A model generated the notes under the pieces. The model saw only the letters and a list, made by a program, of their open reading frames with translations. It was not told the DNA's origin and did no database searches. Position numbers and translations under genes: made by a program. Shown here one piece after another: positions 599-20,603 of a stretch of 21,773 nucleotides of DNA; the stretch's first letter is position 1; every line of letters starts with the position of its first letter. Source of the DNA: an uncultured archaeon (GTDB lineage: Archaea; Asgardarchaeota; Heimdallarchaeia; Heimdallarchaeales; Kariarchaeaceae); assembly GCA_964645535.1 (NCBI GenBank), contig CAZYCQ010000054.1, positions 1 to 21,773 on the forward strand. Direction: 5' to 3'.

Positions 599-1903
599 CT
601 ATTTACCCACAGAAGGATACAAGTCAATGGATATGGCACCAAACAAGGTAGGATCTTTCTTCTTCAGCATTTCTATGGTGGGTTTTGTGCTGACGACATA
701 GATGAATATGAGCATTGAAACGACGTATATTATGGCTGTAAACACGAAGGAGACATTGTATCCATACCTTTCAATGATGTTTCCACTAATTGGAGAAAAA
801 ATGGTCCATCCGACCCATCGGGCAGTACTTGTCCAAGCACTTCCCGTTGCCCGAACACGATTCTCAATATATGAGATGATTTTTGATTGTCCAATTGGGG
901 CACTCATGTTTGCAAAGGTGCCTCTTAGAATGAAGAAAATCGAAGCTGGCAACAGCTCATCAGAAAATACGATACCCAACAAGGAAACAACGGAAAGGAT
1001 CGTTGTGATGGCATAAACCCGGATATCTCCAAAACGCTTTGCCAACGGGGCAGTCAACTGGGTTGCCACCCCCATCAATAAATTGAGTGCCATGACAAGT
1101 AGCGATATTAATCCCGGACTCGCATTTAGGCTTTCTAAATATGGTGGAAGGAATGGAAGTGTTGATCCTGCACCCGCACCAGAAAGGAACTGTACCATCG
1201 TCAGAAGAAGAAAGGGGACAACTACGGCCGGTGCGAAAAGAATTCGAAACTGAGTAAGGATAGGCTGTCTACTCTCTGTTTCTGGATCAAGTGTTACTCC
1301 TTTTGAAAGCGTCAAGATCAGAAGACCCAAATAAATAATCCCTCCCAATATCAGAATCCCCGCAACCAAGGGAAAAATGGATCGATAGATTTCTGCGGAC
1401 CCCTTTTCCACTTCTCTGAACCAAAGAGACGAGATGCCTGCACCTATTGCGGGAGGGATCATCCATGTTGTAGAAAAGAGGGCGAAGGCGGCAACGCGAT
1501 GGTTTCCTGTATTTTCTGCCAAAATTGCAGCACCGGGACCACTGATTATAGCCTGTGCAACGCCTGCGATCAGGTAGAAATAGAATACACCATCTGCCCC
1601 AGGTACAAAAACGATTATTGATGCTGCAACTATGGATGTAAATCCAGTAACAAAAAGCATTCTTGTGAGTCCAATCCTTGAGGCGAAGAGAGCAAATGGA
1701 AGGGATGCCACAGCAACTGTCAGGAACCGGGCGGACACAATCCTTCCTACTTCACTATAGCCCACCCCCAATTCCAATAAATAGAGGCTGATGGTTGGAT
1801 CAAGGGTTCCCATTGCCAAGTTTGTAATCGCGGCACCCAAAATGACAACATAACTTAACGGAGTGAGTTCAAAGATTTCCGCCACATCACCCCAATTTGC
1901 CAA
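599..1903 (-). CDS. Major facilitator superfamily (MFS) transporter
   Basis: 434-aa ORF with about 12 hydrophobic segments in two halves. MFS motif-A-like loops occur in both halves (FALFASRIGLTR; APLAKRFGDIR), with typical C-terminal RVRATG...GNIIERYGYNVSF. TTG start. Substrate cannot be assigned. Confidence 0.9.
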   Translation of the reverse strand: MANWGDVAEIFELTPLSYVVILGAAITNLAMGTLDPTISLYLLELGVGYSEVGRIVSARFLTVAVASLPFALFASRIGLTRMLFVTGFTSIVAASIIVFVPGADGVFYFYLIAGVAQAIISGPGAAILAENTGNHRVAAFALFSTTWMIPPAIGAGISSLWFREVEKGSAEIYRSIFPLVAGILILGGIIYLGLLILTLSKGVTLDPETESRQPILTQFRILFAPAVVVPFLLLTMVQFLSGAGAGSTLPFLPPYLESLNASPGLISLLVMALNLLMGVATQLTAPLAKRFGDIRVYAITTILSVVSLLGIVFSDELLPASIFFILRGTFANMSAPIGQSKIISYIENRVRATGSAWTSTARWVGWTIFSPISGNIIERYGYNVSFVFTAIIYVVSMLIFIYVVSTKPTIEMLKKKDPTLFGAISIDLYPSVGK

Positions 1904-2068: not shown

Positions 2069-3133
2069 TTGAAAATGTTGAGTTTTACACGTTATACCCT
2101 TTTCGAGGAAATCCCTGAAAAGCTCCTTCCTGGAATAATAAAAATTAGAATTGAGGGAGAGGAAGACTACAATTATCCTCTTGATGTGACAACCACAGAC
2201 GAGGAAACTGAGCTAAATGCAATGAAAGTACCTCCCCATCCAGACAGCCGAATAATTACAATTGTTGGTCATCATGACGATCATGTGGTTGCCTTAGGAA
2301 CACTTCGGTTGAACATAGGATCTCACAATAGAAACAACGCATCCATCATGGTGAGAGTTCTTTCCTCTGAGAGAAGGAAGGGTTATGGGTGGGCGATTTT
2401 GGAAAAGTTGGTTCAGGAAATTCCAGAGGAGGTTGACATTCTTTTCTTCCAAATTCTTCCACAATACAGGGAGTTCTATGAATATATTGAGAAATACCCC
2501 GTAAAATTAGGAATGATAGAGCGAAAATCCGCTAGCGATTTGAGAAAGTTCAACCTCCCGGAGGTAAGATCGAAGGCAGCTGAATTAAGGAGAAACGCAG
2601 AGGAACAGGGATATGAGTTCATTAAAATACGAGATTTTGAATTTCCGGAAGAGTTCAACCTGAATGCATATATGAAGGTTCTAGAACAAATATGGAATGA
2701 TATGCCATCCGAAGATTTGAGCTTTGAAGATGAGAGGATTAATGAAAGACACTTTGAGGTAATGAAAGAAAGGATCAAGGCAAGTGGAACGCACAATTGG
2801 CTAATTGTTTGCATTGAAAAAGAAACCGGGTATCCAGTTGGCATGACGGATATCTTTTTTGATTACAGGTTTCCTGAGCTGTTGTATCAGGGAGACACAG
2901 GTGTGATTCGCGAACACCGAGGAAAGCGGCTTGGCCTGACATTGAAATATCTCATGCTTGAAGAAATTCTTTCAGACAAAAAATTGAAGGATGCCAAGTA
3001 CATTCAAACCCACAACGCTCATTCCAATGAACCGATGATTCGAATCAACAACGAACTTGGTTATGAGGAAGTTGCTTTGCTGCGGGAATATGAAATTCGT
3101 AAGGACGATCTCTTTAAAATTTTAAGGAATTGA
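2069..3133 (+). CDS. Tandem GNAT-family N-acetyltransferase
   Basis: Two acetyl-CoA-binding motif A segments (VRVLSSERRKGYGWAIL; TGVIREHRGKRLGLTLK) and a C-terminal TxNAxxNxPMxxINxxLGY motif. The start may be ATG 2075, about 25 nt after TTAATATT. Confidence 0.88.
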   Translation: MKMLSFTRYTLFEEIPEKLLPGIIKIRIEGEEDYNYPLDVTTTDEETELNAMKVPPHPDSRIITIVGHHDDHVVALGTLRLNIGSHNRNNASIMVRVLSSERRKGYGWAILEKLVQEIPEEVDILFFQILPQYREFYEYIEKYPVKLGMIERKSASDLRKFNLPEVRSKAAELRRNAEEQGYEFIKIRDFEFPEEFNLNAYMKVLEQIWNDMPSEDLSFEDERINERHFEVMKERIKASGTHNWLIVCIEKETGYPVGMTDIFFDYRFPELLYQGDTGVIREHRGKRLGLTLKYLMLEEILSDKKLKDAKYIQTHNAHSNEPMIRINNELGYEEVALLREYEIRKDDLFKILRN

Positions 3134-4503: not shown

Positions 4504-6462
4504 GTGATGACCTCCCCAAGTTCTTTCAGAGATGGTATCATTGCGTCGGTAGAACGATACCTATCGCTCCACTACCCCGACTCTAAAGATCGGATGATCG
4601 ATGATTTCAAAGAAAAATTACCTGTTCCCTTGTCAGAAATGGAATCATTAAAACAGATTGAAGAATTGATTATGGGATTTAGGCCTGCCCTCTCAGGAAT
4701 ACTTCCTCAAAAGGAAGCTGACACCTTGACAACAGACATCCTTCCCATGTTCAACGCAGTGTTGGGAGGCGAACTACGTAGAAGAGAGGAAAAACCAAAA
4801 ACACCCTCAATTAAGATTAAATTTTTCTGCCAAGTCTGCAATGAAGAGATTCACATGCCCGAAGACCAAAGGACACTTGTTGCCCAGGGTCACCTTCCCA
4901 TTCCATTGCATCACAAGAAACCTGTTGCAATCAGGACTGTCAGGGGTACTGTGGAAAGAACCCCTCAAAAGAATTACAATAAAATTGCATCCAAACGAGT
5001 TCTTGAGCTATTACAATTTCAACCCCCACTTTCTGAGGAAGGGGATGTAGTAACTTACCTCAGTGTAGGGATCGATGTGGGTTCGTCAACGACCCATCTC
5101 ATCTTTTCAAGGCTGACCTTACGACAAGACATCGGTTTCTTCAACATGACCAATCGCTTCAATTTTGTGAATCGAAAAGTAATCTATCGGAGTGAAATCG
5201 TCAACACCCCATTGCTGGACACAAATATGATCGACATTAATGGAGTGGTCGAATTCTGCAAGAAGGAATACCTCAAGGCAGGAATTGTTCCAGAAATGAT
5301 TGAAACGGGTGCTGTCATTGTAACTGGAGAATCAGCAAAAAAAAGGAATGCTGCTGAAATCGTGGAACGACTAGCAAATGAAACTGGAAAATTCGTAAGT
5401 GCAACGGCTGGACCAAATTTCGAATCAGTCCTTGCTGCCTTGGGGAGCGGAATAGTTGACAGATCCTTTGAACGTAAGAATAATATTCTCCATGTTGATA
5501 TCGGAGGTGGAACATCCAATATTGCCTTGGTTTCCAACGGACAGGTCATAGGTACTGCATGTATCAACATAGGGGGTCGACTTCTTGGCATACGTGATGA
5601 TTTTACGATTTGGAGGATTGATGAACCGGCTGCTTTTGTCATGAGGGAACTCGGAATGGAATATGAAATTGGGGACAAAATCCCTGAGAAAGATGTTTTA
5701 ACAATCTCAGACACACTCGCAGATGCTTTGATTGAAGTAATGCGACAGCCTCCTCGAAGTCCAATCGCAAAGAGACTTATGATGACTGAACCATTGGCCT
5801 TAGATCTCCCAATACATGAGGTGTCCTTCTCTGGAGGTGTAGGAAAGCTCATCTATTCGACAGGAGGTTTCTATGAAGACATTGGCCGATATTTGGCGGA
5901 GGCAATCAAGAAGAGGGTAAAAAAGTTAAGAGGTGAATTAGTTGAACCTCCGAATACAATTCGGGCAACTGTCATAGGTGCGGGTGCCTTTTCGTTGTCA
6001 GTTTCTGGATCGACTACATATTTCGACAATTCCTTGGTGTTTCCAGTCAAGAATCTCCCAGTAGTACATGTCAGCATCGATCGCAATAATTTTACTGAAG
6101 GGGATGTAATACAGGCAATTCAGACTGCCCTTAACAAATATGACCTCATAGAAGGTGAGGACGACATTGCCCTCTACTTCAAAGATCCTGTCTACCCACA
6201 ATATGAGATGTTACAGGTTTTTGCCAAAGGAATCGCTAAGGCTCTCCAAAAAAGTAATCAGACCCGAAAACTGGTGGTTATTATTTCAAACATGGATATG
6301 GGTTCCCTATTGGGATTGACAATCAGAAAAGAAACAGAACTTACAACACCTTTGATTTGCTTGGACGAATTAATCCTCAAGGAAGGTGATTGGATCGATA
6401 TCGGTGTTCCGAATGGTCAAACCTTTCCGGTAACCATCAAGAACCTTGTTTTCAATAAGTGA
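4504..6462 (+). CDS. eutA: EutA-family (ethanolamine ammonia-lyase reactivase-like, ASKHA fold) ATPase with a ~180-aa N-terminal extension containing a CxxC...HH metal-site candidate
   Basis: SVGIDVGSSTTHLIFSRL, IETGAVIVTGESAKKRNA, FVSATAGPNFESVLAALGSG, VDIGGGTSNIA, INIGGRLL, FSGGVG, TIRATVIGAG and GDWIDIG...PVTIKNLVF all match EutA. Probable start is ATG 4507. Confidence 0.88.
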   Translation: MMTSPSSFRDGIIASVERYLSLHYPDSKDRMIDDFKEKLPVPLSEMESLKQIEELIMGFRPALSGILPQKEADTLTTDILPMFNAVLGGELRRREEKPKTPSIKIKFFCQVCNEEIHMPEDQRTLVAQGHLPIPLHHKKPVAIRTVRGTVERTPQKNYNKIASKRVLELLQFQPPLSEEGDVVTYLSVGIDVGSSTTHLIFSRLTLRQDIGFFNMTNRFNFVNRKVIYRSEIVNTPLLDTNMIDINGVVEFCKKEYLKAGIVPEMIETGAVIVTGESAKKRNAAEIVERLANETGKFVSATAGPNFESVLAALGSGIVDRSFERKNNILHVDIGGGTSNIALVSNGQVIGTACINIGGRLLGIRDDFTIWRIDEPAAFVMRELGMEYEIGDKIPEKDVLTISDTLADALIEVMRQPPRSPIAKRLMMTEPLALDLPIHEVSFSGGVGKLIYSTGGFYEDIGRYLAEAIKKRVKKLRGELVEPPNTIRATVIGAGAFSLSVSGSTTYFDNSLVFPVKNLPVVHVSIDRNNFTEGDVIQAIQTALNKYDLIEGEDDIALYFKDPVYPQYEMLQVFAKGIAKALQKSNQTRKLVVIISNMDMGSLLGLTIRKETELTTPLICLDELILKEGDWIDIGVPNGQTFPVTIKNLVFNK

Positions 6463-8713: not shown

Positions 8714-10117
8714 TTATTTCTTCCCCTTCTTTTTGTTTTCTGCCCGGAGGTGTTCGACCATTTCCGCAAATGATCTGGTCAAGTCTCCAATTTCGTCATC
8801 CTGCACAATCGTTTCGTCCAAGACGACATTTTCAAACAGGTCTTCCTTTGTTGCATTAAGGGTTATTTGCTTTGCCGCCTGTGTCAGCTTTCCAATTGGC
8901 TTGGTTACGGCATTCGAAAGGTAAAGCCCGACCCCTAGAATGGCTAAGGTTATGAAGATAAAAAACAAGAAGAGGTTTCTTTGCAATGAGGACTGCTTTT
9001 GGTTCATATCGTTTTGGATTCTTGCAACAGATGCCAACACCTCTGCAACCTTTACAACGACCGCAAAGTCATATAATGGCCCTTGAGCTGTGGATATTTG
9101 GCTAAATGTCAAGATGAAGCCTTCTCCATTTTTCTCGAATTCTATTGTCCCATTGGTTTTGTTTTTCAATTCCTGCAAGTTTTCTATGGAAAGAGCAGGG
9201 CTGCCATCGATATTGGTCTCAAAATCATTGATCGTTGGGAGTTCCTGATTGATGTCATGATTTTCCGCATCCCATTCGGGATGGGCCAAAAGAGTAAAAT
9301 CTTCTTTTTGGAACAAACTCGCATATCCTTGATCCAGAATGTTCACTTTCAATACCTTGTCTCTAATGGTTGTTATCTTGAAATCGAGTCCAACAACTCC
9401 AATCAGGTTTCCTTCCACATAAACTGCCTGTGTCAAAGAAACCACCAGCCCTTGAGTGATGTCGAAGTAGGGTGGCGAATATACCACAGCCCCTCTTGCC
9501 TGTACGGCTTCGATGTACCAATCTTCCAATGGTGGGTTGTATTCCCTTTTCAAATCAACGAAAGCACCAGGAAAGTTCCTGAACACTCCGTTGCTAAATG
9601 CCACATACAGCCAGACGTATTCGCGGTTTTGCTCGTGGATCGGCCTGAAAACCAGATCAAGGTAAGCTGAACGCTGAATGGTTTGGTTCATGTCCGCTGT
9701 CAGTCTGTTTCCGGGATAATAATAGGTCGAGGTTGTGTTTGAGATGATCTCTTGGTACGTATTGTCATATCCGTGATCGGGAAGGCTCGAATTCGTCTCA
9801 GAATCATGGTAACTCTTAATGGAACCTAAATTTGAACTGGGATCAAACAATTCCTCTGTTGCCTTTACAATTTTGGCAACTGCTGCCTCCGCATTCCTGA
9901 ATTTGGCCTCAATTATTTCCGCGTTTTCATTCGAACTTTTTTGGATGTTGGTAATGATCTGATTCTTCAGATTTTCCGAACTTATATCGATGGTTTCGTT
10001 CCCTATCCGGGTCAAATTCATGTATGCCATGCCTGAAACCAAAGACATGGAAATAATTGAAATCAATACAAAACTGACAATAATTTGTGTCCGTATGCTA
10101 TAATCTTGTAATTTCAT
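8714..10117 (-). CDS. Membrane sensor: TM - dCache_1 - TM - HAMP, no output domain
   Basis: N-terminal TM; WLYVAFSNGVFRNFPG, YNPPLEDWY, PPYFD, IGVVGLD, GYASLF..LLAHP (double Cache); second TM; HAMP (VTKPIGKLTQAAKQI...DEIGDLTRSFAEMVEHL); then a stop after a short basic tail. AGGTGAT precedes the ATG. Confidence 0.88.
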   Translation of the reverse strand: MKLQDYSIRTQIIVSFVLISIISMSLVSGMAYMNLTRIGNETIDISSENLKNQIITNIQKSSNENAEIIEAKFRNAEAAVAKIVKATEELFDPSSNLGSIKSYHDSETNSSLPDHGYDNTYQEIISNTTSTYYYPGNRLTADMNQTIQRSAYLDLVFRPIHEQNREYVWLYVAFSNGVFRNFPGAFVDLKREYNPPLEDWYIEAVQARGAVVYSPPYFDITQGLVVSLTQAVYVEGNLIGVVGLDFKITTIRDKVLKVNILDQGYASLFQKEDFTLLAHPEWDAENHDINQELPTINDFETNIDGSPALSIENLQELKNKTNGTIEFEKNGEGFILTFSQISTAQGPLYDFAVVVKVAEVLASVARIQNDMNQKQSSLQRNLFLFFIFITLAILGVGLYLSNAVTKPIGKLTQAAKQITLNATKEDLFENVVLDETIVQDDEIGDLTRSFAEMVEHLRAENKKKGKK

Positions 10118-10129
10118 AAGATCACCTTT

Positions 10130-12787
10130 CTAGTTGTCTGGAACAAACCCCTCCACGTCCACAGCAGTCATCATGGACGATATCTCTTCAAATGCCACTG
10201 AGATTGCCTCCGCCACTCCTGACGACACATCAATGTATCTTCCTTTGTCGGTAAGGCTACAGAGCTCCTCAAGATCCTTCCGATTTTGAAGTTGACCAAC
10301 CCCAATGATCACAAGATTGACCCCTAAAATAGTACCTGCAAGCCCTTTGAGGTCATCTATCGAGTATCTCTTGCTAGAATTGTCTTCGCCATCCGTCAAT
10401 GCCACAATCCAATTATCCCGGGTCATGTCATCCAATCCTGTCATTGCATCACCTAAGGCATCATAAAAGGCCGTTGCACCAGCAGCCCGATTTAACTTAT
10501 TGATGGCCAATAGGATTTCCTTTTCATTGCCTTTTTTCTTCATGGGACTCAAATATTCTCTGGCGGTCCTCGAAAAAACAATAATCCGCACCAAATCATT
10601 TTCTGCCACCTGATTCTTGAATATCTTTCGTATTCCATCTCTTGCGGCTTTCAATTTCTTTCCTGCCATACTGCCTGACATATCCAAAACAAAGGTGACA
10701 AAACGCATCTTTCTTGATCCCGCAAGTTTTTTCAATTTCACATCTATTTCCTTGGCTAACTTCTTATTCCCCCTTTCCTTGTAAATCTCTGAAAGACTCT
10801 TCAAACAACTCAGGGCAATCCTAATGTCTAGATCCTCTGCGTTAGCTGCTGTATCGAGGAACAAATCTATCGCCTCTTCCAATTGTCCTATTGAACGATA
10901 AAACTGGCCATAGTTGTAATTTGAATATAGAAGAAGGCGTGAATTGGCTAGAGCCTCTGCAATGTCCTTCTCTTCCTCAAGAAACTTTCGTGCCTCCTCA
11001 AATTCTCCTTTTGCTATCTTGATGGTCGCTAAGTTTCCATACCTTGTGGCCATCCCTTTTGCATTGTCGATACTCTTGTCCAAATCAAGTGCCTGAAGGA
11101 CGTATCCTTCTGCCTTGTCATATTCCTCTATGTCGAAATACAGCATCCCCAAATTGTTATAACGTGATGCCAATGAAACTGTCAAATCAACTTTTTCCGC
11201 TTCTTCCGAGGTTTCTGCTAGCAACTTCCGTGCAATTTCAATGGAACTCTTGTAAGCTGCATTTGCATCCTTGAGGTTCCCTCTTGCCTTATGGATGTTC
11301 CCAATATTATTCAGGCAAATTCCGATTCCCTTTTCATTTTTCAGGGTTTTGAACAATTCAAGAGCTCTCTGATAATTGCTCATTGCCCTATCTAGGTTTC
11401 CTGCATAATACTCCTCGTTTCCAAACCTTAAGGTGGTTACCAACCCCTCGAACGTCGTATACAATAAGGAAATTTCTTGGGAGCCTCCTCCATCCCCTCG
11501 AAGATCTCTAGATAAATCTCCTTGGGTAATCCTTTTGCACACCTCCGTCAATTCTGTAACGGGCTCTACAATCTTGTCTGAGAGCTTCGTCGTTACAAAG
11601 GCAATCCCTCCCGACAGTGCCAATGAAATCAAGAGAAAGATCCCTAGCCCAATTGCCAATTCACTGAGAATTCGATTCTTCAGCTTAACTGCGGGCTGAA
11701 GGATGTCTGCTTCAGGAACAACCACAAGAACTGAAAATTTCCCTCTGAATGAAGGTGAATAGGCTGCATACCATTTTTCTCCCCTCTTGATGTAGTCGTG
11801 AATTCCTTCCTTTCCACTGGTCGCGTTGAGTATTATTGATGCAAAATCCAGATCATTCTCAACTTCCTCAAGTGCTCCAATTTGGGAACCAAAAAGTTCT
11901 GGTTCATCCACCAAACGAGGATGCACCAAAACCCTTCCCTCATGGTCAATCAAATAGGAATATCCATTTTCAAGTACCTTCCCCGATAATATTGCTTCTT
12001 CAACCGCCCCAAGTGGCAAATCTACTGAGATGACCCCGACTAGGGTTCCATTGTCGAAATATACCGGCATAGAGGACGTCAAGACCAATCCGGACTCCGG
12101 ATCCCTGTCCAGGAAAATGTTGAGCCCTTTTGCATCCACTGCTTTTTTGTACCAATCCTGTACTCGAGAATCATAATAGCCTCCGTCCCTTGCCCAACTC
12201 ATATCGTTGTAAGGCAATTGCCTGAAGAGTCCAGCCTCTTCAAAGCCCATATAGATCCAAATGTAGTTCGGATTCGAAGAATGAAGTGCCTTGAAGATGA
12301 AATCTAGGCTGGATGAAATATTTATCATCTGCTTTACCGAAATGGGAAGGGTTGCAAATTCTTGGGGATTGTCAACTTCAGGCACGAAAATTGTGCTTAC
12401 TTCCCAAGAAGCAGGACCAAATCCATAATAATCATCAACCATTGGTCCAGGTGGAATCCGCGGATCAATGGCTGGATCTGCCCAATAACTTTCAATGGGT
12501 GTTGAGTTTATTCGTCCATTGAAAAGTTCCGTAGCGAATTCCCATGCCATCTTAATGTCGGTTTCAACTCCCTTGAGATATTCGGTGACCAATAAGGCCT
12601 TGTCAGTCGAAATGTCTTGCAGGTTACTAAGTTCCTCTTCCTTCATTGTTTCAAAGGTTAGATTCGAACTTTCCGAAGTGAAGCTTGTTGCCAGACCAAC
12701 GGAGGTTCCGACAATCAATATCATTCCAATAAGCAAAGTTCCTAGAACTGAAAGAATAATTTTCCCTCGAAGTGTTCTGATGCGCAA
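10130..12787 (-). CDS. Membrane receptor: TM - dCache_1 - TM - HAMP - TPR repeats - VWA
   Basis: Cache motifs (WIYMGFEEAGLFRQLP, YDSRVQDWY, LVGVISVD, GYSYLID..GRVLVHP); HAMP (IVEPVTELTEVCKRITQGDL...EISLL); about 5-6 TPRs (CLNNIGNIH, YNNLGMLY, YGNLATI, NYNYGQFY); VWA with complete MIDAS (DMSGS, GATAFYDA, LTDGEDN). GGTGAT precedes the TTG. Confidence 0.9.
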   Translation of the reverse strand: MRIRTLRGKIILSVLGTLLIGMILIVGTSVGLATSFTSESSNLTFETMKEEELSNLQDISTDKALLVTEYLKGVETDIKMAWEFATELFNGRINSTPIESYWADPAIDPRIPPGPMVDDYYGFGPASWEVSTIFVPEVDNPQEFATLPISVKQMINISSSLDFIFKALHSSNPNYIWIYMGFEEAGLFRQLPYNDMSWARDGGYYDSRVQDWYKKAVDAKGLNIFLDRDPESGLVLTSSMPVYFDNGTLVGVISVDLPLGAVEEAILSGKVLENGYSYLIDHEGRVLVHPRLVDEPELFGSQIGALEEVENDLDFASIILNATSGKEGIHDYIKRGEKWYAAYSPSFRGKFSVLVVVPEADILQPAVKLKNRILSELAIGLGIFLLISLALSGGIAFVTTKLSDKIVEPVTELTEVCKRITQGDLSRDLRGDGGGSQEISLLYTTFEGLVTTLRFGNEEYYAGNLDRAMSNYQRALELFKTLKNEKGIGICLNNIGNIHKARGNLKDANAAYKSSIEIARKLLAETSEEAEKVDLTVSLASRYNNLGMLYFDIEEYDKAEGYVLQALDLDKSIDNAKGMATRYGNLATIKIAKGEFEEARKFLEEEKDIAEALANSRLLLYSNYNYGQFYRSIGQLEEAIDLFLDTAANAEDLDIRIALSCLKSLSEIYKERGNKKLAKEIDVKLKKLAGSRKMRFVTFVLDMSGSMAGKKLKAARDGIRKIFKNQVAENDLVRIIVFSRTAREYLSPMKKKGNEKEILLAINKLNRAAGATAFYDALGDAMTGLDDMTRDNWIVALTDGEDNSSKRYSIDDLKGLAGTILGVNLVIIGVGQLQNRKDLEELCSLTDKGRYIDVSSGVAEAISVAFEEISSMMTAVDVEGFVPDN

Positions 12788-12957: not shown

Positions 12958-13305
12958 TTATTTCTTGCATATTGGACATATTCCTTTGATCTTAATCCAT
13001 TCTCTCCAATGCCGGAAATGAAAATAGGTGTGACAATTCGGACATGCCTCAACCAAATCAAGATCTTTCAAGACCTTCCTGCAGATGTGGCATTGTGCAG
13101 CGGCACTTTCCGCTTGTCTGACATCACGCCATAATTGAAGATCTTCCTCTGAAGGGGCAGTCTTATCATTCTCTTCCCTTTCCTTCAGTTTTCGCTTCTT
13201 GTACGCATCGAACAATTGATCGAAGTCGTCTTTCAATGATCTAGGATAGGCATGCCTCATTAAATTCATTTGGTCTAGAATGAGCAAAAACAGAAACTCA
13301 TTCAC
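12958..13305 (-). CDS. RING-finger (RING-H2-like) zinc-binding protein, putative E3-type module
   Basis: C-terminal CHIC-x12-CPNC-x4-H-x2-H-WREW-x6-CPIC, with the conserved RING Trp and CPxC end, preceded by a charged helical region. The start is uncertain. Confidence 0.8.
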   Translation of the reverse strand: MNEFLFLLILDQMNLMRHAYPRSLKDDFDQLFDAYKKRKLKEREENDKTAPSEEDLQLWRDVRQAESAAAQCHICRKVLKDLDLVEACPNCHTYFHFRHWREWIKIKGICPICKK

Positions 13306-14540: not shown

Positions 14541-15665
14541 ATGAAGAAATTAAACAAATCCACCATTTCAATTCTTTTTCTTTTGGTTGGCTTGCTGTTG
14601 AGTTCTACAGCAATGAACCAGCATTTCGAAGAAAAATCATTCCATCAATCACAAATCACTTCAGATCTTGGTGCACAAGTTTCCGAGGTCGGTCTTTCGG
14701 AAGTGCAGGTTGTTCAACCAATCAGTGAATCACCAATGCCTGTCTATCACCTGACAAGTTCCCGAATGTTCACTATTCTCTACCTGAAACTGAATTTTAC
14801 AGGAACTACTACCCTAGATGGAATACAGGTAAGTGGGCAACCTACGATTATCGTCGATGGATCTGTTTTTCCCATTCGTTCCCGATATGATGAATTCACC
14901 ATGTTCCTTACCTTATCCCAAGGTCTACATGTCATCTCTCTTGTCAACATCGGTGTTTCCGGAAACGCAGGTGCCTATGAGCTGGTATTTGCCCATCAGA
15001 GCTTCATTGTCTCGGTCGGTCCTGATGCTGCTATTCCTTCATTTTCTCCATTTCAGACATCCTTTGAACTGAATGTCACATTTGATCCCAGCCGTGAATT
15101 CACCAGTGATGAGGCACCTTTGGATCAGGCTCTTATCAGTCCAACCACCATTGAAGGCAATTTATCGAAGGTCACTGCCACGCTTGAAGGTACTGGTTTC
15201 ATAGGGGATCTGTCAACTCCTGGTCCCTTCCCTTCAACAAGTGGAATTCTGTTGCTGCAAACTGCTGATGGAATCCGTAGTATCCCTGCTGTAGGTACTG
15301 AAGAAACACTAGGATTTGGGGATGGCTTACCGATCGCAAATTTCATTTCCCTGTTCCCCATCGGATATGATCCTTCCTCACCTTATTATGCAAATATGGT
15401 CTTTTTTGGAGCAGATACGGTTTCATTCCATGGAGTGACCAACGATTCCTCCGTGACCCAACCGACTGATACTGCCTCAACTGTCACATCTTCCTCGACT
15501 ACATCTTCCTCACAAAATACTTCAAACATCACCTCGTCTGAAATAGAAACCTCGTCCGATACAATTCCTACATCTTCCACCATCTCTCCAATTGGACTTC
15601 CGGTATTCATGGGATCGGTCATCATGGCTATTGGAACCATCTTGCTAAGGAGGAAACTAAAATGA
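14541..15665 (+). CDS. Secreted cell-surface protein with S/T-rich linker and C-terminal membrane anchor
   Basis: Signal peptide (MKKLNKSTISILFLLVGLLLSS), beta-rich body with NxS/T sequons, a Ser/Thr run of about 50 aa, a TM helix and RRKLK tail. ATGA overlap with the next gene. Confidence 0.8.
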   Translation: MKKLNKSTISILFLLVGLLLSSTAMNQHFEEKSFHQSQITSDLGAQVSEVGLSEVQVVQPISESPMPVYHLTSSRMFTILYLKLNFTGTTTLDGIQVSGQPTIIVDGSVFPIRSRYDEFTMFLTLSQGLHVISLVNIGVSGNAGAYELVFAHQSFIVSVGPDAAIPSFSPFQTSFELNVTFDPSREFTSDEAPLDQALISPTTIEGNLSKVTATLEGTGFIGDLSTPGPFPSTSGILLLQTADGIRSIPAVGTEETLGFGDGLPIANFISLFPIGYDPSSPYYANMVFFGADTVSFHGVTNDSSVTQPTDTASTVTSSSTTSSSQNTSNITSSEIETSSDTIPTSSTISPIGLPVFMGSVIMAIGTILLRRKLK

Positions 15666-17794
15666 AACAGACTTCGTTAATCCTGATCATTCTCTTTGTT
15701 GGATCTAGTTTGGCCATTCTCAATGCAAATGCACAAACTACCGATTCAAATTTCACCATCGTAATTGAAACCAATAAGGGAAATCAAAGACGTGAAGCCT
15801 ATGCCAATTATCTGGCAACAGTTCTCCCTTATTTAGGAATTGATGTGGAATTACGGTTCACCCCATTCTCGCAGTTCGTGAATGACCTGCTCTTCACAAG
15901 TCCCAAACCCTACGGCATTAGTATTACCAGCTTTGGAGGAGGCTCTGTTATCGCTCCTGACCTTTATGATCTTTATCACAGCCAAGGCTTCTTCGGAGAC
16001 CTAGCCTACCAGTTGTCATCCAATGAATGGAAATCTTGGTTGGCTCAGGATCTTGGTAGTGGCGGTGTCACCCAAGATTATGTCGATTCACTCATTGACA
16101 ACATCTCCTCTTCCTTGGATCTTACTCAAAGAAAGGAGCTTACCCTTCAATTCCAGCAGATATTCATGGAACAATTGTTATATGACTATCCTCTGCTTGC
16201 ACCTACTGATATCTTCTCAATCTGGCATGGTCTCGACAATTTCGATCCTGTTGAAGGGATATTGGGTTCTGCCTATTTGGGTGCAAAATGGGGTGTGGAA
16301 ACACCTCCTGAACGGCAGAACAATGCATCCACAATTGCTGACATGCTTCTCTCGGTTACTGGAACATTCGATCCTCTACAGGTTTTTGATGCGGAAACTC
16401 AATCTCTCCTGTCTGGACTGTTCCCTCAGCTCCTCATGTTTTCAAAGAAGGATTACAATCCCCACCCATGGTTGGCCAAGGAATTCAACTGGACGACTTG
16501 GTATAATGCTCCAGATACGTCTGGTGGAACTGTTGACATTCCATACGGAAGGATGGACTTCTATCTCTATGACAATTGGCAATGGAGATATCCCAACGGC
16601 ACTGTCTTCGGTCCTGTGACTGTTGATGACGTCAAATTCACATACGATGTGATTAAAGCCGATCATACCCTGATTTCTATCCAGTCCGAATTAGATGGGG
16701 TTGACCACATCGAAGTCAATGCAACAGAAAATCGTGTCTCCCTTTTCATCACCCAACCTGGAATTGATGACCTCTATAATTTCGGAAAAATCCCAATCAT
16801 TCCGTCCGGATTGCTCGGCGGCGATTTGACATTTGCTAATGGTACCATTATCCGTGCCTTGGAAAATACTTCTGCACCATTGGCATATTGGCAGTATGAT
16901 CCCTTTCAAACACAAGAATGGGATGCATTCGAGAACAATCCGGTACAGGCTGGTCCCTATTACATAGACTTTTCTGACCCTAACCAATATAGTCCCGGTC
17001 AATATGTCTATAAATGGGCCAATCCACTGTTCCCCTTCCCCAATGAATGGGACAGCACCAACTTCGATCAGAGGACTCCTGAACCCGAAGATGCATACTT
17101 CTTCACTTGGGCAGATGATCCTAACACACCTGAGAAGGAGAAGCCTAGTGAAATGACCATCAACCAGTTCTATCACCCAATTTCCTCTGACATAAATCTC
17201 GAACTGCAACTCTTCAAGTCGGGCGAAGTCGACTTGACCTCACCCATAAACTTCGGCAGTGCAGAAGTGAAGGCACAGTTAGACGATTCCAAGTTTGATG
17301 TCCACACTACCCCAACTCTTGCAAGTGCAGATCTGCTGATCTTCAACCTGCTTGATCCCAACCTGAAGAAATACAACGTCAGGAGAGCTATAGCACATAT
17401 GGTGGACAAGGTTTCCCTCAACTACATCACTATGAATCTCAGAGAACCTCAAGATTCTCCTGTCAGAACCTTTTACAAAAATACCTTCTATTCTGACCAG
17501 TGGAAAATCCCATTCGATTATGAAGCTGCCAAGCTATTAATGCAGTTCGAAGGGTATTCGGTTCCCGACCTCCCTCTCCAAATGCCGGTGATGTCTTTGA
17601 CTGGTCTTAAGTTCGATAGAATGGATGATTCACTTCAGATGGGCGGGTCATATTCTGCATTTATTGAGGATGAGATGCCTGAAACACCGTCTGAAACAAC
17701 CACCTCCTCAATTCCATGGCTTTGGCTTCTTGGAATTGTAGGGCTCCCAATTATTGCACGAAAAAGGTTTACTGGTAAATTGAAAAGATATTAG
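15662..17794 (+). CDS. Family-5 (OppA/DppA/NikA-like) ABC solute-binding protein, circularly permuted, C-terminally anchored
   Basis: Signal peptide; SBP-5 motifs TFDPL, PWLAKEF, PVTVDDVKFTYD, PVQAGPY, FKSGEVDL, FNLLDPNLKKYNVRRAIAHMVDK, FDYEAAKLLM. The normally C-terminal segment (TNKGNQRREAYANYL...GIDVEL...QRKELTLQFQQIFMEQLLYDYPL) comes first. Ends in a T/S linker, TM helix and basic tail. Confidence 0.85.
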   Translation: MKQTSLILIILFVGSSLAILNANAQTTDSNFTIVIETNKGNQRREAYANYLATVLPYLGIDVELRFTPFSQFVNDLLFTSPKPYGISITSFGGGSVIAPDLYDLYHSQGFFGDLAYQLSSNEWKSWLAQDLGSGGVTQDYVDSLIDNISSSLDLTQRKELTLQFQQIFMEQLLYDYPLLAPTDIFSIWHGLDNFDPVEGILGSAYLGAKWGVETPPERQNNASTIADMLLSVTGTFDPLQVFDAETQSLLSGLFPQLLMFSKKDYNPHPWLAKEFNWTTWYNAPDTSGGTVDIPYGRMDFYLYDNWQWRYPNGTVFGPVTVDDVKFTYDVIKADHTLISIQSELDGVDHIEVNATENRVSLFITQPGIDDLYNFGKIPIIPSGLLGGDLTFANGTIIRALENTSAPLAYWQYDPFQTQEWDAFENNPVQAGPYYIDFSDPNQYSPGQYVYKWANPLFPFPNEWDSTNFDQRTPEPEDAYFFTWADDPNTPEKEKPSEMTINQFYHPISSDINLELQLFKSGEVDLTSPINFGSAEVKAQLDDSKFDVHTTPTLASADLLIFNLLDPNLKKYNVRRAIAHMVDKVSLNYITMNLREPQDSPVRTFYKNTFYSDQWKIPFDYEAAKLLMQFEGYSVPDLPLQMPVMSLTGLKFDRMDDSLQMGGSYSAFIEDEMPETPSETTTSSIPWLWLLGIVGLPIIARKRFTGKLKRY

Positions 17795-18579
17795 AACGCA
17801 AAAAACTGCTTCAAAAGTTTATTTTTCTTTTGTTCTTTATAGTCCTTCAATAAGTCCATAGATGTATCCAGTATTCTATTCAAATTACTCACTTCCTCAT
17901 TTTTCAAACTTAATTTTCCACTAAACAATTCGGGATATTTCCTTGCCTTGACTTTTTGAACTATTTCGCAGAAGAAGGCGGCAAATGAAAGAGGGTCGGA
18001 CTTTATTCTCCAACCATTCTTCATCTCTTCAAGAATAAGAAGCTCCAAGTAAAATGATGGAAGAGGGACATCATGCTGTTTCTTCCAAAATTTAATGATC
18101 CTTGTAAAATGGGAGAACATCCCGTAGGTTTTCCCATTCATCTTTTTGACATTATCTTTGACTGTATGGGGCTCTGTAATGATCTTTTTTTCTCCTTCGG
18201 GTATCAAGTACTGTTGTTCATTTATTTGAATGGCTGGAACAAGCTCAAACTTTACATCATTTAAGACAACGCCTATTGTGTGTTCTTGTGGCCTAATGGA
18301 ATTATCTGGCCACTTCCGCTGTAATTCTCCATATAATTTTTCTTGTGCTTCATGAATGTCCTCTTGGAAGTAATATTTCTTGATCTCCACAAAAATGTCT
18401 ATGTCGGAGGTTGGTAAATTCGTTTTTCGCCCAAATGAACCGCTCGTGAACTTCCTATTGACAAAATCCAAGGAATTAAGAAATCTAAAGATTTCCATTC
18501 GTTGTTTCTTCGCTTTTGCTTTCCACTCCTTGTTGTAAATACTATTTGGTAATTTTGTGTTGAACCATTTCTTGGTCAT
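17791..18579 (-). CDS. cGAS/DncV/OAS-like (SMODS, CD-NTase-type) nucleotidyltransferase
   Basis: Pol-beta signature SGSFGRKTNLPTSDIDIFV, third acid in FELVPA, then YLIP...ITEP, RIIKFWK and SFYLELL, as in SMODS/CD-NTases. Probable ATG 18579 (262 aa) lies about 27 nt after TTATTTAAG; the ORF track starts at TTG 18591. Confidence 0.82.
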   Translation of the reverse strand: MTKKWFNTKLPNSIYNKEWKAKAKKQRMEIFRFLNSLDFVNRKFTSGSFGRKTNLPTSDIDIFVEIKKYYFQEDIHEAQEKLYGELQRKWPDNSIRPQEHTIGVVLNDVKFELVPAIQINEQQYLIPEGEKKIITEPHTVKDNVKKMNGKTYGMFSHFTRIIKFWKKQHDVPLPSFYLELLILEEMKNGWRIKSDPLSFAAFFCEIVQKVKARKYPELFSGKLSLKNEEVSNLNRILDTSMDLLKDYKEQKKNKLLKQFFAF

Positions 18580-18749
18580 GGGTACCCCCAAAACAATGTC
18601 AATCGCTTAAATAATTTTAATAATCCTAAAATAAAGGACCTTTCTTGTTGCCTCACAGAAACCTAAATAGAAAAATAGCACTGCAAATCCAAGCCTATCT
18701 GTATCCTCTCAAAGATTTTTTCAATGCATGTCTTTTCCTTGAAGGATGT

Positions 18750-20603
18750 TTATATGGATCCATAAGCCAAAAATGCCGTGGCAAATGCAAGAAGGAATAC
18801 GATTGCCGAAAAGCCATAGACGAACCAAGGTAACCATGACTTCTTTGTCTTTCTGGTTCTGATTCCCCCTGAATCCGGTACGGCTTCAATTTCATAGACC
18901 CTGAGAACAGGAACCGGAACTCGTGAGAGCCATCCCTTAATTCTTACTTTTGTGTTTTCAAACTCCGGGAGATCGAAAATTGCAAATTGCAGTTGACCGA
19001 TTCTGGTCAGAGATTCCCAGAGCGCAACCATGGATTCTCCATTTTCCTCAATGACAAAATTGTGATCAAAATTGAAGCCGGGAAGCAACCGCCCCATCAC
19101 ACGCCCTTCCACCATGACTGGATGCCTGACATATAGTCCCGTTTTGAACAGGGGACTTGTCTCATCAGCCTCAAGAATCTCGTTGATGGTGGCTTTCCTG
19201 AAGTTGAAGGAATGGGCTGACCTCGCATACCAAAACAGATAAATGCTGAAGGCAAACAATGCCACTGCCCAAATTCCCAGTTTCAGGTATGCAGGCAGGT
19301 TGCCTAAAATAAGAAGGGCATAAGCTCCCACAAAGATGAATGACCAGAATGTGAAATTGGTCACAAGAAACATCATGTCCTTGAGGAAATAGGACTGATA
19401 GAATGACGAGATCTTGAAGTCTACTTTCTGGCTGAGGATAGGCGCCTGACCCAGTTCCATCGCAAGCTCATCCATCATTCCAATGCGATCTGACACCAAT
19501 GGGTGTGAACTGAATAGTCTGAGAACCTTTGCCATCGGCTGGGTTCTTTCCCATTTCAGCACCCGATTCATCCTTTCCTCAGGAGACCTGCTTCCCTGAC
19601 CATAAAATGGCGTCGGACTTGAGAAATGCGCTATGAAGCCCAAGGTGTTCAGGACGTTTCGAGTTTCCTTTGGCTTGGCTTTCTCCATCCGATCCGTTCT
19701 CTCCTTTTCCTTATCTTCATATTTCATCTGGGGCGGAAGAAATTGAGAAGCAACAGTCTCATCTCCTTGAGGCGTAATATCCAGAAGACCATATCCGATT
19801 TTCATCAAGGCAGTGCTCAAGGCATGTGGACTGTTTCCATAGACAAAAATGCTCCCAAAATCTGCCATCGCCTCCCTAGCCCTCGTCAATGAGAGAAGGA
19901 AAAGCATGGAAAGGATATAGAGAAAACGGGTAAAAACTGCCAGACCAAGAATGAATGGATAGACAACCCCTGTCCTACCTGCATTCCTGTTCCTGGCAAG
20001 TTGTCTAAGGAAAGAGTAACAATAGGCAATGAACAGAGGAAAACCTGTGGCAATGGTCAACATGACAAAATCATTGTTCTTGACATGGGAAAGCTCATGT
20101 CCAATCACGGCTTTCATTTCCTCTTCATTCAGGTACTTGAACAGCCCCGCGCTGATGGCGAGCCTTCCGTTCCAATGTCCATGTCCATAGACAAAGGCAT
20201 TCATGGTCTCATCCTTCAGTACCAACACCCTTTTGATCCAAATACCGGTATGTAAAACCTTCTCCTCAAGGAAATCCACAAACCACTCTGGAAGCGGCGA
20301 TTCCCGTAAATCCATGAATTCATACTGGTTCACACCAAAGGTCCATCCAATGACAAGATCCATAAAAATAGGAGACAATGCCCATTGAATGACCACCCAA
20401 GCTATCGCATACATGAAAGCGAACCAGAGATTGAGCAAACTCTCATGAAGATTGAGCTCATATTTCAACGATAGGGCAACGGCAACACTGAGCAGAGCCA
20501 AATAGGAAAGAGCTGCCATCCCCGCAACTGAAATCACAAATCTCCCCCGTAGCTTCCACTTTGTGTGTGAAAAACTAGGGGCGTGCATCATTGACACGCT
20601 CAT
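18750..20603 (-). CDS. M48 (HtpX/Ste24-type) membrane zinc metalloprotease with an extra C-terminal TM and OB-fold-like region
   Basis: MNAFVYG, LNEEEMKAVIGHELSHVKNND (HExxH), RAREAMAD (third ligand), LSTALMKI, SSHPLVSDRI. Multiple TM segments; 617 aa, about twice canonical HtpX. Confidence 0.9.
   Translation of the reverse strand: MSVSMMHAPSFSHTKWKLRGRFVISVAGMAALSYLALLSVAVALSLKYELNLHESLLNLWFAFMYAIAWVVIQWALSPIFMDLVIGWTFGVNQYEFMDLRESPLPEWFVDFLEEKVLHTGIWIKRVLVLKDETMNAFVYGHGHWNGRLAISAGLFKYLNEEEMKAVIGHELSHVKNNDFVMLTIATGFPLFIAYCYSFLRQLARNRNAGRTGVVYPFILGLAVFTRFLYILSMLFLLSLTRAREAMADFGSIFVYGNSPHALSTALMKIGYGLLDITPQGDETVASQFLPPQMKYEDKEKERTDRMEKAKPKETRNVLNTLGFIAHFSSPTPFYGQGSRSPEERMNRVLKWERTQPMAKVLRLFSSHPLVSDRIGMMDELAMELGQAPILSQKVDFKISSFYQSYFLKDMMFLVTNFTFWSFIFVGAYALLILGNLPAYLKLGIWAVALFAFSIYLFWYARSAHSFNFRKATINEILEADETSPLFKTGLYVRHPVMVEGRVMGRLLPGFNFDHNFVIEENGESMVALWESLTRIGQLQFAIFDLPEFENTKVRIKGWLSRVPVPVLRVYEIEAVPDSGGIRTRKTKKSWLPWFVYGFSAIVFLLAFATAFLAYGSI

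Follow-up and report, generated by a model that had tools for sequence, protein, structure and literature searches.

Known transmembrane receptors of the Cache/HAMP type have as their output a kinase-control bundle, a kinase, a nucleotide cyclase or a phosphatase. The window analysed here, a stretch of 21,773 nt, encodes a receptor (P0001) in which HAMP is followed by TPR repeats and then by a VWA domain, raising the question of how such a protein would pass on a signal. The answer that we favour, and regard as probable, is that P0001 serves as the long subunit in a transmembrane sensor of the Heimdall group that is encoded by two genes and would work through HAMP-driven docking by its TPR and VWA domains, that is, by binding and not by catalysis. 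Positions 10130-11600 of the reverse strand, to which the original prediction referred, encode residues ~396-885 of this protein, and the peptide FEGLVTTLRFGNEEYYAGNLDRAMSNYQRALELF lies at its HAMP-TPR junction.

Features of the receptor locus and the basis on which each was assigned
Feature	Positions	Strand	Basis and remarks
Long receptor gene P0001	10130..12787	(-)	885 aa, TTG start; order TM1, dCache_1, TM2, HAMP, TPR x6, VWA, acidic tail
TM1, residues 5-37	12677..12775	(-)	Hydropathy; in the model, the start of long helix 6-89
Extracytoplasmic dCache_1 sensor, residues 38-370	11678..12676	(-)	Pfam; Foldseek; motif check
TM2, residues 371-402	11582..11677	(-)	Hydropathy; inside model helix 359-421
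HAMP, residues 406-454	11426..11572	(-)	Pfam, conservation, model
Six TPR-like helix pairs, residues 455-690	10718..11425	(-)	Pfam, PDB sequence matches, Foldseek, model
VWA with intact MIDAS, residues 695-874	10166..10705	(-)	Pfam, conservation, model
Acidic C-terminal tail VDVEGFVPDN	10133..10165	(-)	E879 conserved in at least 90%; disordered in model
Short paralog P0002, 467 aa: TM, dCache_1, TM, HAMP, without output domain	8714..10117	(-)	Pfam; starts 12 nt past the P0001 stop codon
SpeA-like PLP arginine decarboxylase P0003	6876..8711	(-)	Starts 2 nt past the P0002 stop codon
Small RING-like zinc-finger ORF	12958..13305	(-)	Just upstream of P0001

P0001 has just two TM-like stretches, TM1 and TM2, one on each side of the dCache domain, and since there are no others, the HAMP, TPR and VWA domains are predicted to be cytoplasmic. 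Pfam searches at E values of up to 0.01 found no kinase, MCPsignal, HisKA-HATPase, GGDEF/EAL, cyclase or PP2C/phosphatase domain in either P0001 or P0002. This supports the original proposal of a non-enzymatic receptor output, the predicted inner side of the protein being made up of docking domains alone. An AlphaFold2 model of P0001 had a mean pLDDT of 84.2 and a pTM of 0.47, such that it does not place the domains reliably relative to one another and, being of a monomer, cannot show a HAMP dimer.

The HAMP domain was matched by its Pfam model (PF00672) at 21.9 bits, just below the cut-off of 25, and the equivalent region in homologues exceeds this threshold, for instance at 38 bits in P0060. 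Across 53 sequences, the AS1 segment is always 15 aa long, with P409 invariant and G423 conserved in at least 90%, and AS2 begins at an invariant E438; the connector between them (424-437), at 12-23 aa, is the sole part to vary in length among the segments compared. The region is modelled as a helix, a loop and a second helix, the last of which belongs to one unbroken helix (437-461) spanning both AS2 and the first TPR helix. All 53 aligned members have 60 residues in the interval from AS2 to the second TPR, and the linker joining the TPR block to the VWA domain is likewise fixed, at 13 aa in 53/53. Hence the observation that the second HAMP helix runs straight into the first TPR is borne out by both the model and the constancy of the junction, which supports a direct and rigid coupling of HAMP to the TPR-VWA part of the protein.

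TPR models cover residues 450-660, the strongest being TPR_12 (91 bits; cut-off 30.1) and TPR_10 (61.5 bits), and in the AlphaFold2 model this region forms twelve helices between 455 and 690, eleven of them lying beyond the one that continues AS2. Conservation within the family peaks here, in a block of RFGN-YY-G and NNxGN motifs that, together with P409, E438 and the MIDAS, is invariant across Asgard and eukaryotic members. The best PDB matches to the region, both by sequence (E 1e-13) and by fold (Foldseek), are the LGN/Pins scaffolds. The VWA domain (PF00092, residues 697-856; 54.1 bits against a cut-off of 23.8) adopts an alpha/beta VWA fold at 695-874 in the model, and its matches among PDB sequences are a 'conserved protein', CLCA1 and ITIH4. 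Its DxSxS motif is D702-x-S704-x-S706, encoded at 10670-10684 (-); D702, S704, T772 and D799 are invariant in 53 homologues, with S706 conserved in at least 90%, and the same MIDAS positions are invariant in 31/31 eukaryote-type members. The DxSxS, T and D ligands were therefore correctly read as intact, on the strength of the profile match and this conservation, and a functional MIDAS is predicted.

MoxR ATPases usually partner VWA proteins in which the MIDAS is intact. As in many prokaryotic MoxR-VWA pairs, the VWA domain might adapt a MoxR-type AAA+ ATPase to its target, with HAMP gating the access of MoxR to a substrate, and such a partner had been proposed for this receptor. The genome does contain five bona fide MoxR (AAA_3) genes. 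However, these lie on contigs C1, C4, C6, C24 and C73, with none on C54, and AAA+ genes are absent from the conserved neighbours of the receptor in 75 loci. The family also thrives in eukaryotes and giant viruses, where the annotated flanks are without a MoxR gene. We consider this partnership very improbable, and reject it on gene context.

The extracytoplasmic sensor is a clear dCache_1 domain (PF02743, residues 158-346; 67.7 bits, above the cut-off of 45), whose fold resembles the ligand-binding domains of PscC, PctC, Mlp37 and PctA (Foldseek E 1e-10 to 1e-8), with TMt values of 0.6-0.76 against the first three. The dCache_1AA motif of amino acid sensors, YxxxxRxWY ... Y ... D (Gumerov 2022), was scored by regular expression, not structurally. 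By this measure it is lacking from both P0001, in which the Arg is replaced (YDSRVQDWY), and P0002, which has none (YNPPLEDWY). In most of the Asgard proteins, long or short, neutral or acidic residues take the place of the carboxylate-binding Arg; the motif is matched by a few Heimdall type-A forms and by the eukaryote-type long forms, which carry it in full as YDPRCRxWY. Because this Arg is absent, the ligand of P0001 is probably not a canonically recognised amino acid.

A short paralog adjoins the long gene in essentially every locus with enough flanking sequence, whether among the 75 Asgard loci, GC-rich archaeal loci or AT-rich loci of eukaryote or virus type. There are also natural fusion proteins of 1500-1650 aa, with the short form as the N-terminal half and the long form as the C-terminal half, which argues that the two receptors act as one unit. 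In a tree of the sensor halves, those of the long proteins separate from those of the short ones, and both of the resulting clades contain Asgard as well as eukaryote-type members; the pair must therefore be ancient.

The other neighbours are less uniform. The product of the decarboxylase gene P0003 scored 313.9 bits against NF003763, which is under the cut-off of 369. A speA-like gene is adjacent in 54 of the 75 loci, and this frequency, with the gap of only 2 nt observed here, is what might be expected were the pair to control SpeA, the TPR-VWA arm sequestering or activating the enzyme when arginine, agmatine or polyamines are sensed outside the cell, as a kinase-free feedback on polyamine synthesis. 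The exchange of Arg for neutral or acidic residues in most Asgard sensors would suit a cationic ligand, and the HDAC-family gene found upstream in Thor loci also fits such a role. However, the annotated eukaryote-type loci keep the receptor pair with no speA beside it, eukaryote-type long forms have the full amino acid motif, and adjacency in an operon does not imply physical contact; it may reflect co-expression only. Control of SpeA seems unlikely. A homologue of the RING-like ORF lies beside the receptor pair in one other Heimdall genome, such that its association with the pair is tentative.

A beta-propeller gene is adjacent in 56/75 loci, these belonging to other Asgard lineages. The type-A loci, including that at 10130..12787, are without it, and a search with one Hodarchaeal query found no propeller homologue in the genome encoding P0001, which is 89% complete. 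This absence would be accommodated if the MIDAS ligand were the receptor's own acidic tail (..VEVEGFVPD), bound either in cis or by a neighbouring receptor, so that binding of the sensor ligand would switch autoinhibition or cause receptors to cluster, with no call for a separate partner. Such an arrangement would have parallels in integrin I domains, with their intrinsic-ligand Glu, or in the C-terminal peptides that TPR grooves hold. The monomer model leaves the tail disordered, and its Glu is conserved in at least 90% of both Asgard (E879) and eukaryote-type (E927) members. Nevertheless, the case is purely inferential and leaves the conserved propeller and speA neighbours of other lineages unexplained; we judge this self-binding more doubtful still than control of SpeA.

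Under the favoured reading of HAMP-driven docking, a small ligand would be bound by the extracellular dCache_1 domain, and the signal would pass via TM2 into a HAMP four-helix bundle, probably shared with the output-less paralog P0002. As the second HAMP helix is also the first TPR helix and the junction is of constant length, rearrangement of the HAMP domain should turn or tilt the entire TPR solenoid, along with the VWA domain, which follows at a constant distance of 13 residues. In this way the receptor could hold or let go of a cytoplasmic partner by means of the TPR groove and the Mg2+-MIDAS face of the VWA, the latter coordinating an acidic side chain. The architecture, the conservation of MIDAS and junction, the pairing and fusion with the short form, the proximity to speA and the distribution of the family are observed, whereas the heterodimer, the direction of signalling, the class of ligand and the identity of the partner are those that we infer; the last might be SpeA, the receptor's own acidic tail or the beta-propeller protein that other lineages encode.

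P0001 is between 26% and 58% identical to 52 homologues across its full length, and scores 1145 bits against the family profile. It shares with them full-length collinearity, including the RFGN-YY-G junction block, and an adjacent short dCache-HAMP paralog. The family is present in 100 of 301 sampled Asgard genomes, representing 34 of 70 genera, and all full-length prokaryotic matches are archaeal, nearly all of them labelled Asgard; the only named cluster in a search of a protein atlas was from Thorarchaeota. No full-length member was found in bacteria, matches in 185,579 species-representative genomes being confined to the VWA domain. Outside the archaea, full-length members could be assigned by name to two jakobids, Trimastix, Platysulcus, four chytrids and giant viruses. 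Ciliates, for which similar proteins had been suggested, are not among the named members. The homology searches uphold the suggestion of a receptor family shared between archaea and eukaryotes, in which the homology extends over the full length and goes beyond generic TPR similarity. As searches of the literature found no description of the family or of a Cache-HAMP-TPR-VWA architecture, this group of Asgard, eukaryotic and giant virus proteins is apparently undescribed.

The manner in which the eukaryotes acquired it can be read in two ways. The long-short pair might be an Asgard-derived eukaryotic signature system, in which receptors signal without an enzyme by the HAMP-driven repositioning of a MIDAS/TPR platform, a view we hold only tentatively. 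Alternatively, the eukaryotic copies might not have been inherited from the Asgard ancestor of eukaryotes, but owe their spread to horizontal transfer, with giant viruses as one possible vehicle, following a single passage from Asgard archaea to a eukaryote or virus. This latter history is quite possible, if a little short of probable. It is consistent with the named eukaryotic members being few and scattered, with the many unassigned copies that are intron-less and located on long AT-rich contigs, and with the tree, in which the giant virus copies fall inside the eukaryote-type clade, beside AT-rich unassigned contigs. An apparent GT-AG intron is present in one metagenomic copy. Set against horizontal spread are the distribution of the named eukaryotic members over four supergroups, the existence of dozens of clusters at about 25-35% identity, and the grouping of the eukaryote-type copies into one clan, in the long genes as in the short. 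When rooted with the paralogs, the tree also joins the eukaryote-type clade to Heimdall type A, the clade of P0001 (SH-aLRT 95-98). However, the alternative of Asgard monophyly, which would suit horizontal spread, was not rejected by an AU test (p = 0.07; 41 rows, LG+G4), although this p value is only indicative, the tested group having been named after the tree was seen. Rows L009, L014 and L053 of the first FastTree represent the wrong ORFs and were disregarded.

With docking domains welded to HAMP in an invariant register, the family would offer a clean case of prokaryotic signalling by recruitment. Should the eukaryotic copies descend from the Asgard ancestor, this would be a eukaryotic signature protein at the level of receptors, and would revise the published view that all eukaryotic dCache_1 proteins come from one bacterial transfer accompanied by a VWA insertion; should they have spread via viruses, the family would allow the movement of genes among Asgard archaea, viruses and protists to be traced.

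Among known systems, the same pairing of a dCache_1 domain with a MIDAS-bearing VWA in one membrane-associated protein occurs in alpha2delta and CACHD1. Foldseek aligned 551-581 columns of alpha2delta-1 to P0001, and the YxxxxRxWY motif is common to these proteins and the eukaryote-type members of the family. In alpha2delta and CACHD1, however, the VWA is extracellular, inserted within the first dCache_1, and neither HAMP nor TPR is present (PMC8915833), whereas that of P0001 is C-terminal and predicted to be cytoplasmic, 350 residues past the dCache domain and behind TM2, HAMP and TPR. Among PDB sequence matches to the P0001 VWA at E values of up to 0.01, alpha2delta is absent. Derivation in either direction was rejected, as the VWA has no specific sequence affinity and the topology differs. 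The same paper reported a VWA insertion in every eukaryotic dCache_1 protein, and none of these proteins in fungi (PMC8915833); the proteins described here from chytrids and jakobids are at odds with this.

The closest resemblance over the N-terminal two thirds is to the bacterial dCache_1-HAMP receptors (PctA/PctB/PctC, Mlp24/Mlp37, Tlp3 and the dCache histidine kinases), which have the same order of TM, dCache_1, TM and HAMP, and the signature residues of whose HAMP are also present in P0001. These feed into an MCP bundle, kinase, cyclase or phosphatase, in contrast to the passage from HAMP to TPR and VWA in P0001; a census of dCache_1AM receptors listed MCP signalling, kinase, cyclase and phosphatase outputs only (PMC10589655). 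With LGN/GPSM2/Pins, the P0001 TPRs have in common an NNxGN-type repeat signature, but LGN carries GoLoco motifs and is a scaffold for cell polarity that is soluble, and the likeness may reflect only a shared TPR_12-type repeat class that is also frequent in bacteria. The MoxR-associated VWA proteins and the BatA/BatB proteins of Bacteroides have VWA domains that face the cytoplasm or are anchored in the membrane, with intact MIDAS and in some cases TPR repeats. P0001 differs from these in having no AAA+ neighbour, in its reversed domain order of TPR then VWA, and in carrying this module behind a dCache-HAMP sensor.

The region 10130-11600 on the minus strand, for which an output made of HAMP, TPR and VWA domains had been predicted, encodes the C-terminal 490 residues of the long receptor ORF (protein P0001). 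Hydropathy reveals only two TM-like segments in this protein (residues 5-37 and 371-402), and since these lie on either side of the dCache_1 domain, the HAMP, TPR and VWA regions are likely to be cytoplasmic. The metal site (MIDAS) of the VWA domain was found intact, as anticipated, being composed of DMSGS (702-706), T772 and D799. No catalytic or chemotaxis output domain was detected with Pfam at E values up to 0.01, in agreement with the proposal of a non-enzymatic output. A public gene call (P0004, 864 aa) begins at M22, which halves the first TM segment (12724-12787, minus strand); homologue alignments back the upstream TTG start.

Receptor domains and other features of the window
Feature	Position	Strand	Details
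Long receptor ORF	10130-12787	-	885 aa, TTG start
dCache_1	residues 158-346		Pfam 67.7 bits (cut-off 45)
HAMP	residues 406-454		Pfam 21.9 bits (cut-off 25)
TPR_12, TPR_10, other TPR models	residues 450-660		TPR_12 91 bits (cut-off 30.1)
VWA	residues 697-856		Pfam 54.1 bits (cut-off 23.8)
RING-H2-like ORF	12958-13305	-	115 aa; zf-RING_2, E 6e-5
SMODS-type nucleotidyltransferase	17791-18591	-	PF18144, E 3e-13
M48-family peptidase	18750-20603	-	617 aa
EutA-like reactivase	4504-6462	+	PF06277, 465 bits
GNAT acetyltransferase	2069-3133		
MFS transporter	599-1903		

The coupling of the HAMP domain to the repeats is constant in length throughout the family. In 53 full-length members, eukaryotic sequences included, which have 26-58% identity to the window protein, the first HAMP helix (AS1, P409-G423) always comprises 15 residues, the span between the start of the second (AS2, E438) and the NNxGN motif in repeat two (N497) is always 60, and the linker between TPR and VWA (690-702) is always 13; variation in length is confined to the HAMP connector (12-23 residues). 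The most conserved block of the whole protein is LRFGNxxYYxGxLxRAxxNYxxALELF..N.KG.GIC.NNIGN, and there is no variation across the alignment at P409, E438, G456, N457, Y472, N494, N497 or any of the MIDAS ligands. An AlphaFold2 model built from the family alignment of 53 sequences (mean pLDDT 84.2) has a long N-terminal helix leading into a double-PDC sensor, then helix 359-421, consisting of TM2 and AS1, a disordered connector (422-436) and an unbroken helix, 437-461, that spans AS2 and the first TPR helix. Eleven more helices extend to residue 690, giving six TPR-like pairs in total, followed by a Rossmann-like VWA fold (695-874) and a disordered acidic tail; the arrangement of the domains relative to one another is not trustworthy because of the low pTM (0.47). 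The original prediction that the second HAMP helix runs directly into the first TPR, whose peptide is present in the protein, is borne out by this unbroken helix and by the 60-residue spacing, and the data argue for the junction being a rigid mechanical link.

Clustering of the ORFs from 75 Asgard loci revealed that a short paralogue of around 480 aa (TM, dCache, TM and HAMP, then a stop codon; P0002 in the window) follows the receptor in essentially all loci with sufficient flanking sequence. A SpeA-like arginine decarboxylase adjoins in 54 of these loci, and a beta-propeller/zinc-ribbon protein of roughly 480 aa in 56. In the window, the long receptor is followed after 12 nt by the short paralogue and, after a further 2 nt, by the SpeA-like gene (P0003), which scores 314 bits against NF003763, under the cut-off of 369; a search of the window's genome (89% complete) with one query found no propeller gene. 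Thor-type loci (44/75) have an HDAC-family gene divergently oriented upstream of the propeller-receptor-speA cluster (e.g. L027:7325-8473; PF00850, 254 bits), which, as this family includes acetylpolyamine amidohydrolases, fits a polyamine theme. The short form also adjoins the long form, either in tandem or in divergent orientation, in eukaryote- and virus-type loci of high AT content, including a giant-virus contig, and in archaeal loci of high GC content with a Hef helicase-nuclease as a neighbour. Of the proteins retrieved by the profile search, 13 with lengths of 1500-2130 aa were checked, and 11 of them, all 1520-1670 aa long, are fusions with an N-terminal half best matching short forms and a C-terminal half resembling long forms, which speaks for joint action of the two proteins.

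A MoxR-type AAA+ ATPase had been put forward as the partner of the receptor; this is unlikely, as the 75 Asgard loci show no conserved AAA+ gene in the vicinity of the receptor, and all five MoxR genes of the window's genome lie on other contigs. The small ORF encoding a RING-H2-like zinc finger is just upstream of the receptor, and another Heimdall MAG has a homologue with 38% identity close downstream of its receptor pair (L011:3615-3899), the evidence coming from these two loci; the protein may be a partner or a link to the ubiquitin system. Elsewhere in the window, the SMODS-type nucleotidyltransferase adjoins the M48-family peptidase, and these could form a CBASS-like defence or signalling pair unrelated to the receptor. 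The EutA-like reactivase has a Pfam-less N-terminal extension of about 185 aa, and lies near the GNAT acetyltransferase and MFS transporter.

The amino-acid motif of the sensor is complete in eukaryote-type long forms (YDPRCRxWY) and also intact in a few of the Heimdall long forms (type A). Its arginine is replaced in both the window's long form (YDSRVQDWY) and its short partner (YNPPLEDWY), as well as in most of the Asgard-wide long forms (type B; ..EEWY or ..EDWY), often by acidic residues. Together with the adjacency of speA, these replacements suggest, at the sequence level, that the ligand in Asgard archaea may be a cationic amine.

With residues 400-885 as the query, about 60 proteins of full architecture were retrieved, below which were TPR-only matches; the named ones came from Heimdallarchaeota, Hodarchaeales, Kariarchaeaceae and a few with the label Odin or Promethearchaeota, along with two proteins from chytrids and one from EukProt. 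Across one genome per prokaryotic species, the matches listed include at least about 75 full-length loci, all of them archaeal (labelled Heimdall, Hod, Thor, Prometheo, Hermod, 'uncultured archaeon' and one Bathyarchaeia), and no full-length bacterial members, bacterial matches being to the VWA domain only; the closest locus among them is from a Heimdallarchaeota MAG (L006, 58% identity). Of 301 genomes sampled from the window's phylum, 100, representing 34 of 70 genera, have matches at E values up to 1e-60, as do seven of the ten other genomes of the window's own family. The contig labelled Bathyarchaeia (L034, DATKZI010000011.1) has one full-length pair with speA, and its protein groups with an 'Asgard group archaeon' sequence (P0052), reflecting either mis-binning or transfer. 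In four genomes of another family of the phylum (G049, G113, G246 and G291, family f14), ORFs of around 580 aa align to the profile only at positions 385-901 (HAMP-TPR-VWA), lacking dCache, and may be forms of the receptor that are split or have no sensor.

When 1.84 billion cluster representatives were searched with a profile, full-length matches came from well over 100 clusters, many of which have a distinct C terminus (..GQxNVESL) and mutual identities of only 25-37%. Exact look-up named members from jakobids (Stygiella incarcerata and Andalucia godoyi), Metamonada (Trimastix marina), stramenopiles (Platysulcus tardus) and chytrids (Polyrhizophydium stewartii, Phlyctochytrium bullatum, P. 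planicorne and Nowakowskiella sp.), and an 'uncultured virus' protein on a 650-kb contig. None is a ciliate, a group for which similar proteins had been suggested. The eukaryotic proteins are collinear with, and identical in architecture to, the archaeal ones, sharing the junction block and MIDAS; hence the suggestion of a receptor family common to archaea and eukaryotes holds. A full-length copy is also present in a giant-virus bin, which has NCLDV capsid genes on a different contig, and many intact copies are on AT-rich metagenome contigs of no assigned origin. In one metagenomic copy (L115/L116), the aligned segments on either side of a 73-nt gap are in different reading frames, and the gap has GT..AG borders, which would fit a spliceosomal intron. 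A 235-kb contig (L095, GC 0.22; 15193-16221 and 16807-17700), from either an AT-rich protist or a giant virus, has a eukaryote-type pair whose neighbourhood includes a terpene synthase of microbial type, a protein kinase and several Pfam-less ORFs.

In a tree of the sensor-to-HAMP halves, rooted with bacterial chemoreceptor dCache domains, the short forms make up one clade (SH-aLRT 99) and the long forms another (96). Both contain Asgard and eukaryote-type members, therefore the long/short duplication is older than their split. Among long forms, type B is sister to a group of type A, including the window protein, and all eukaryote-type sequences, with support of 95 under LG+C20 and 98 under LG+G4 (41 rows), the eukaryote clade nesting beside P0036 in the 41-row tree. 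A tree in which the Asgard long forms are all constrained to group is 21.5 log-likelihood units worse and is not rejected (AU p-value 0.07), and in the short-form subtree the eukaryote-type sequences, which have long branches, lie outside both of the Asgard types; hence the Heimdall affinity is suggestive, rather than established. The sensor halves of the pairs at two archaeal metagenomic loci with a Hef neighbour (L109:9347-13836 and L121:9755-14337, GC about 0.63) cluster together and not with the general long and short clades, pointing to independent duplication or gene conversion in this lineage.

The best-supported reading is of a two-subunit receptor made of long and short chains. These would form a HAMP bundle bearing a single TPR-VWA arm; ligand binding would rearrange the HAMP domain and, through the continuous AS2/TPR1 helix, move a docking platform, whose Mg2+-bearing MIDAS and TPR groove would then bind a cytoplasmic partner or let it go. 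Candidates at the Heimdall type-A locus are SpeA, the small RING-like protein or the receptor's own conserved acidic tail, in which E879 is kept in at least 90% of members. Thus the non-enzymatic output and the archaeal-eukaryotic family stand from the original interpretation, whilst MoxR, not a conserved neighbour, and ciliates, none being named, do not.

The receptor is of interest mainly because it occurs in Asgard archaea, eukaryotes and giant viruses alike, and for the invariant coupling of HAMP to TPR; no published description of the dCache-HAMP-TPR-VWA architecture was found in the literature. Foldseek matches its sensor to the ligand-binding domains of PscC, PctC, Mlp37/24, PctA and Tlp3, its repeats to LGN/Pins, and its dCache and VWA together to alpha2delta-1. 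By sequence, the TPR part matches LGN/GPSM2 in the PDB (E 1e-13), and the matches of the VWA part there, to CLCA1 and ITIH4, are all weak. Sensor and transmitter are ordinary dCache_1-HAMP modules; the output is absent from those listed for Cache receptors (PMC10589655). Gumerov et al. described every eukaryotic dCache_1 protein as having a VWA domain inserted in the Cache domain, and fungi as having none (PMC8915833); the chytrid, jakobid and other members, in which the VWA domain is C-terminal and predicted to be cytoplasmic, are at odds with this picture.
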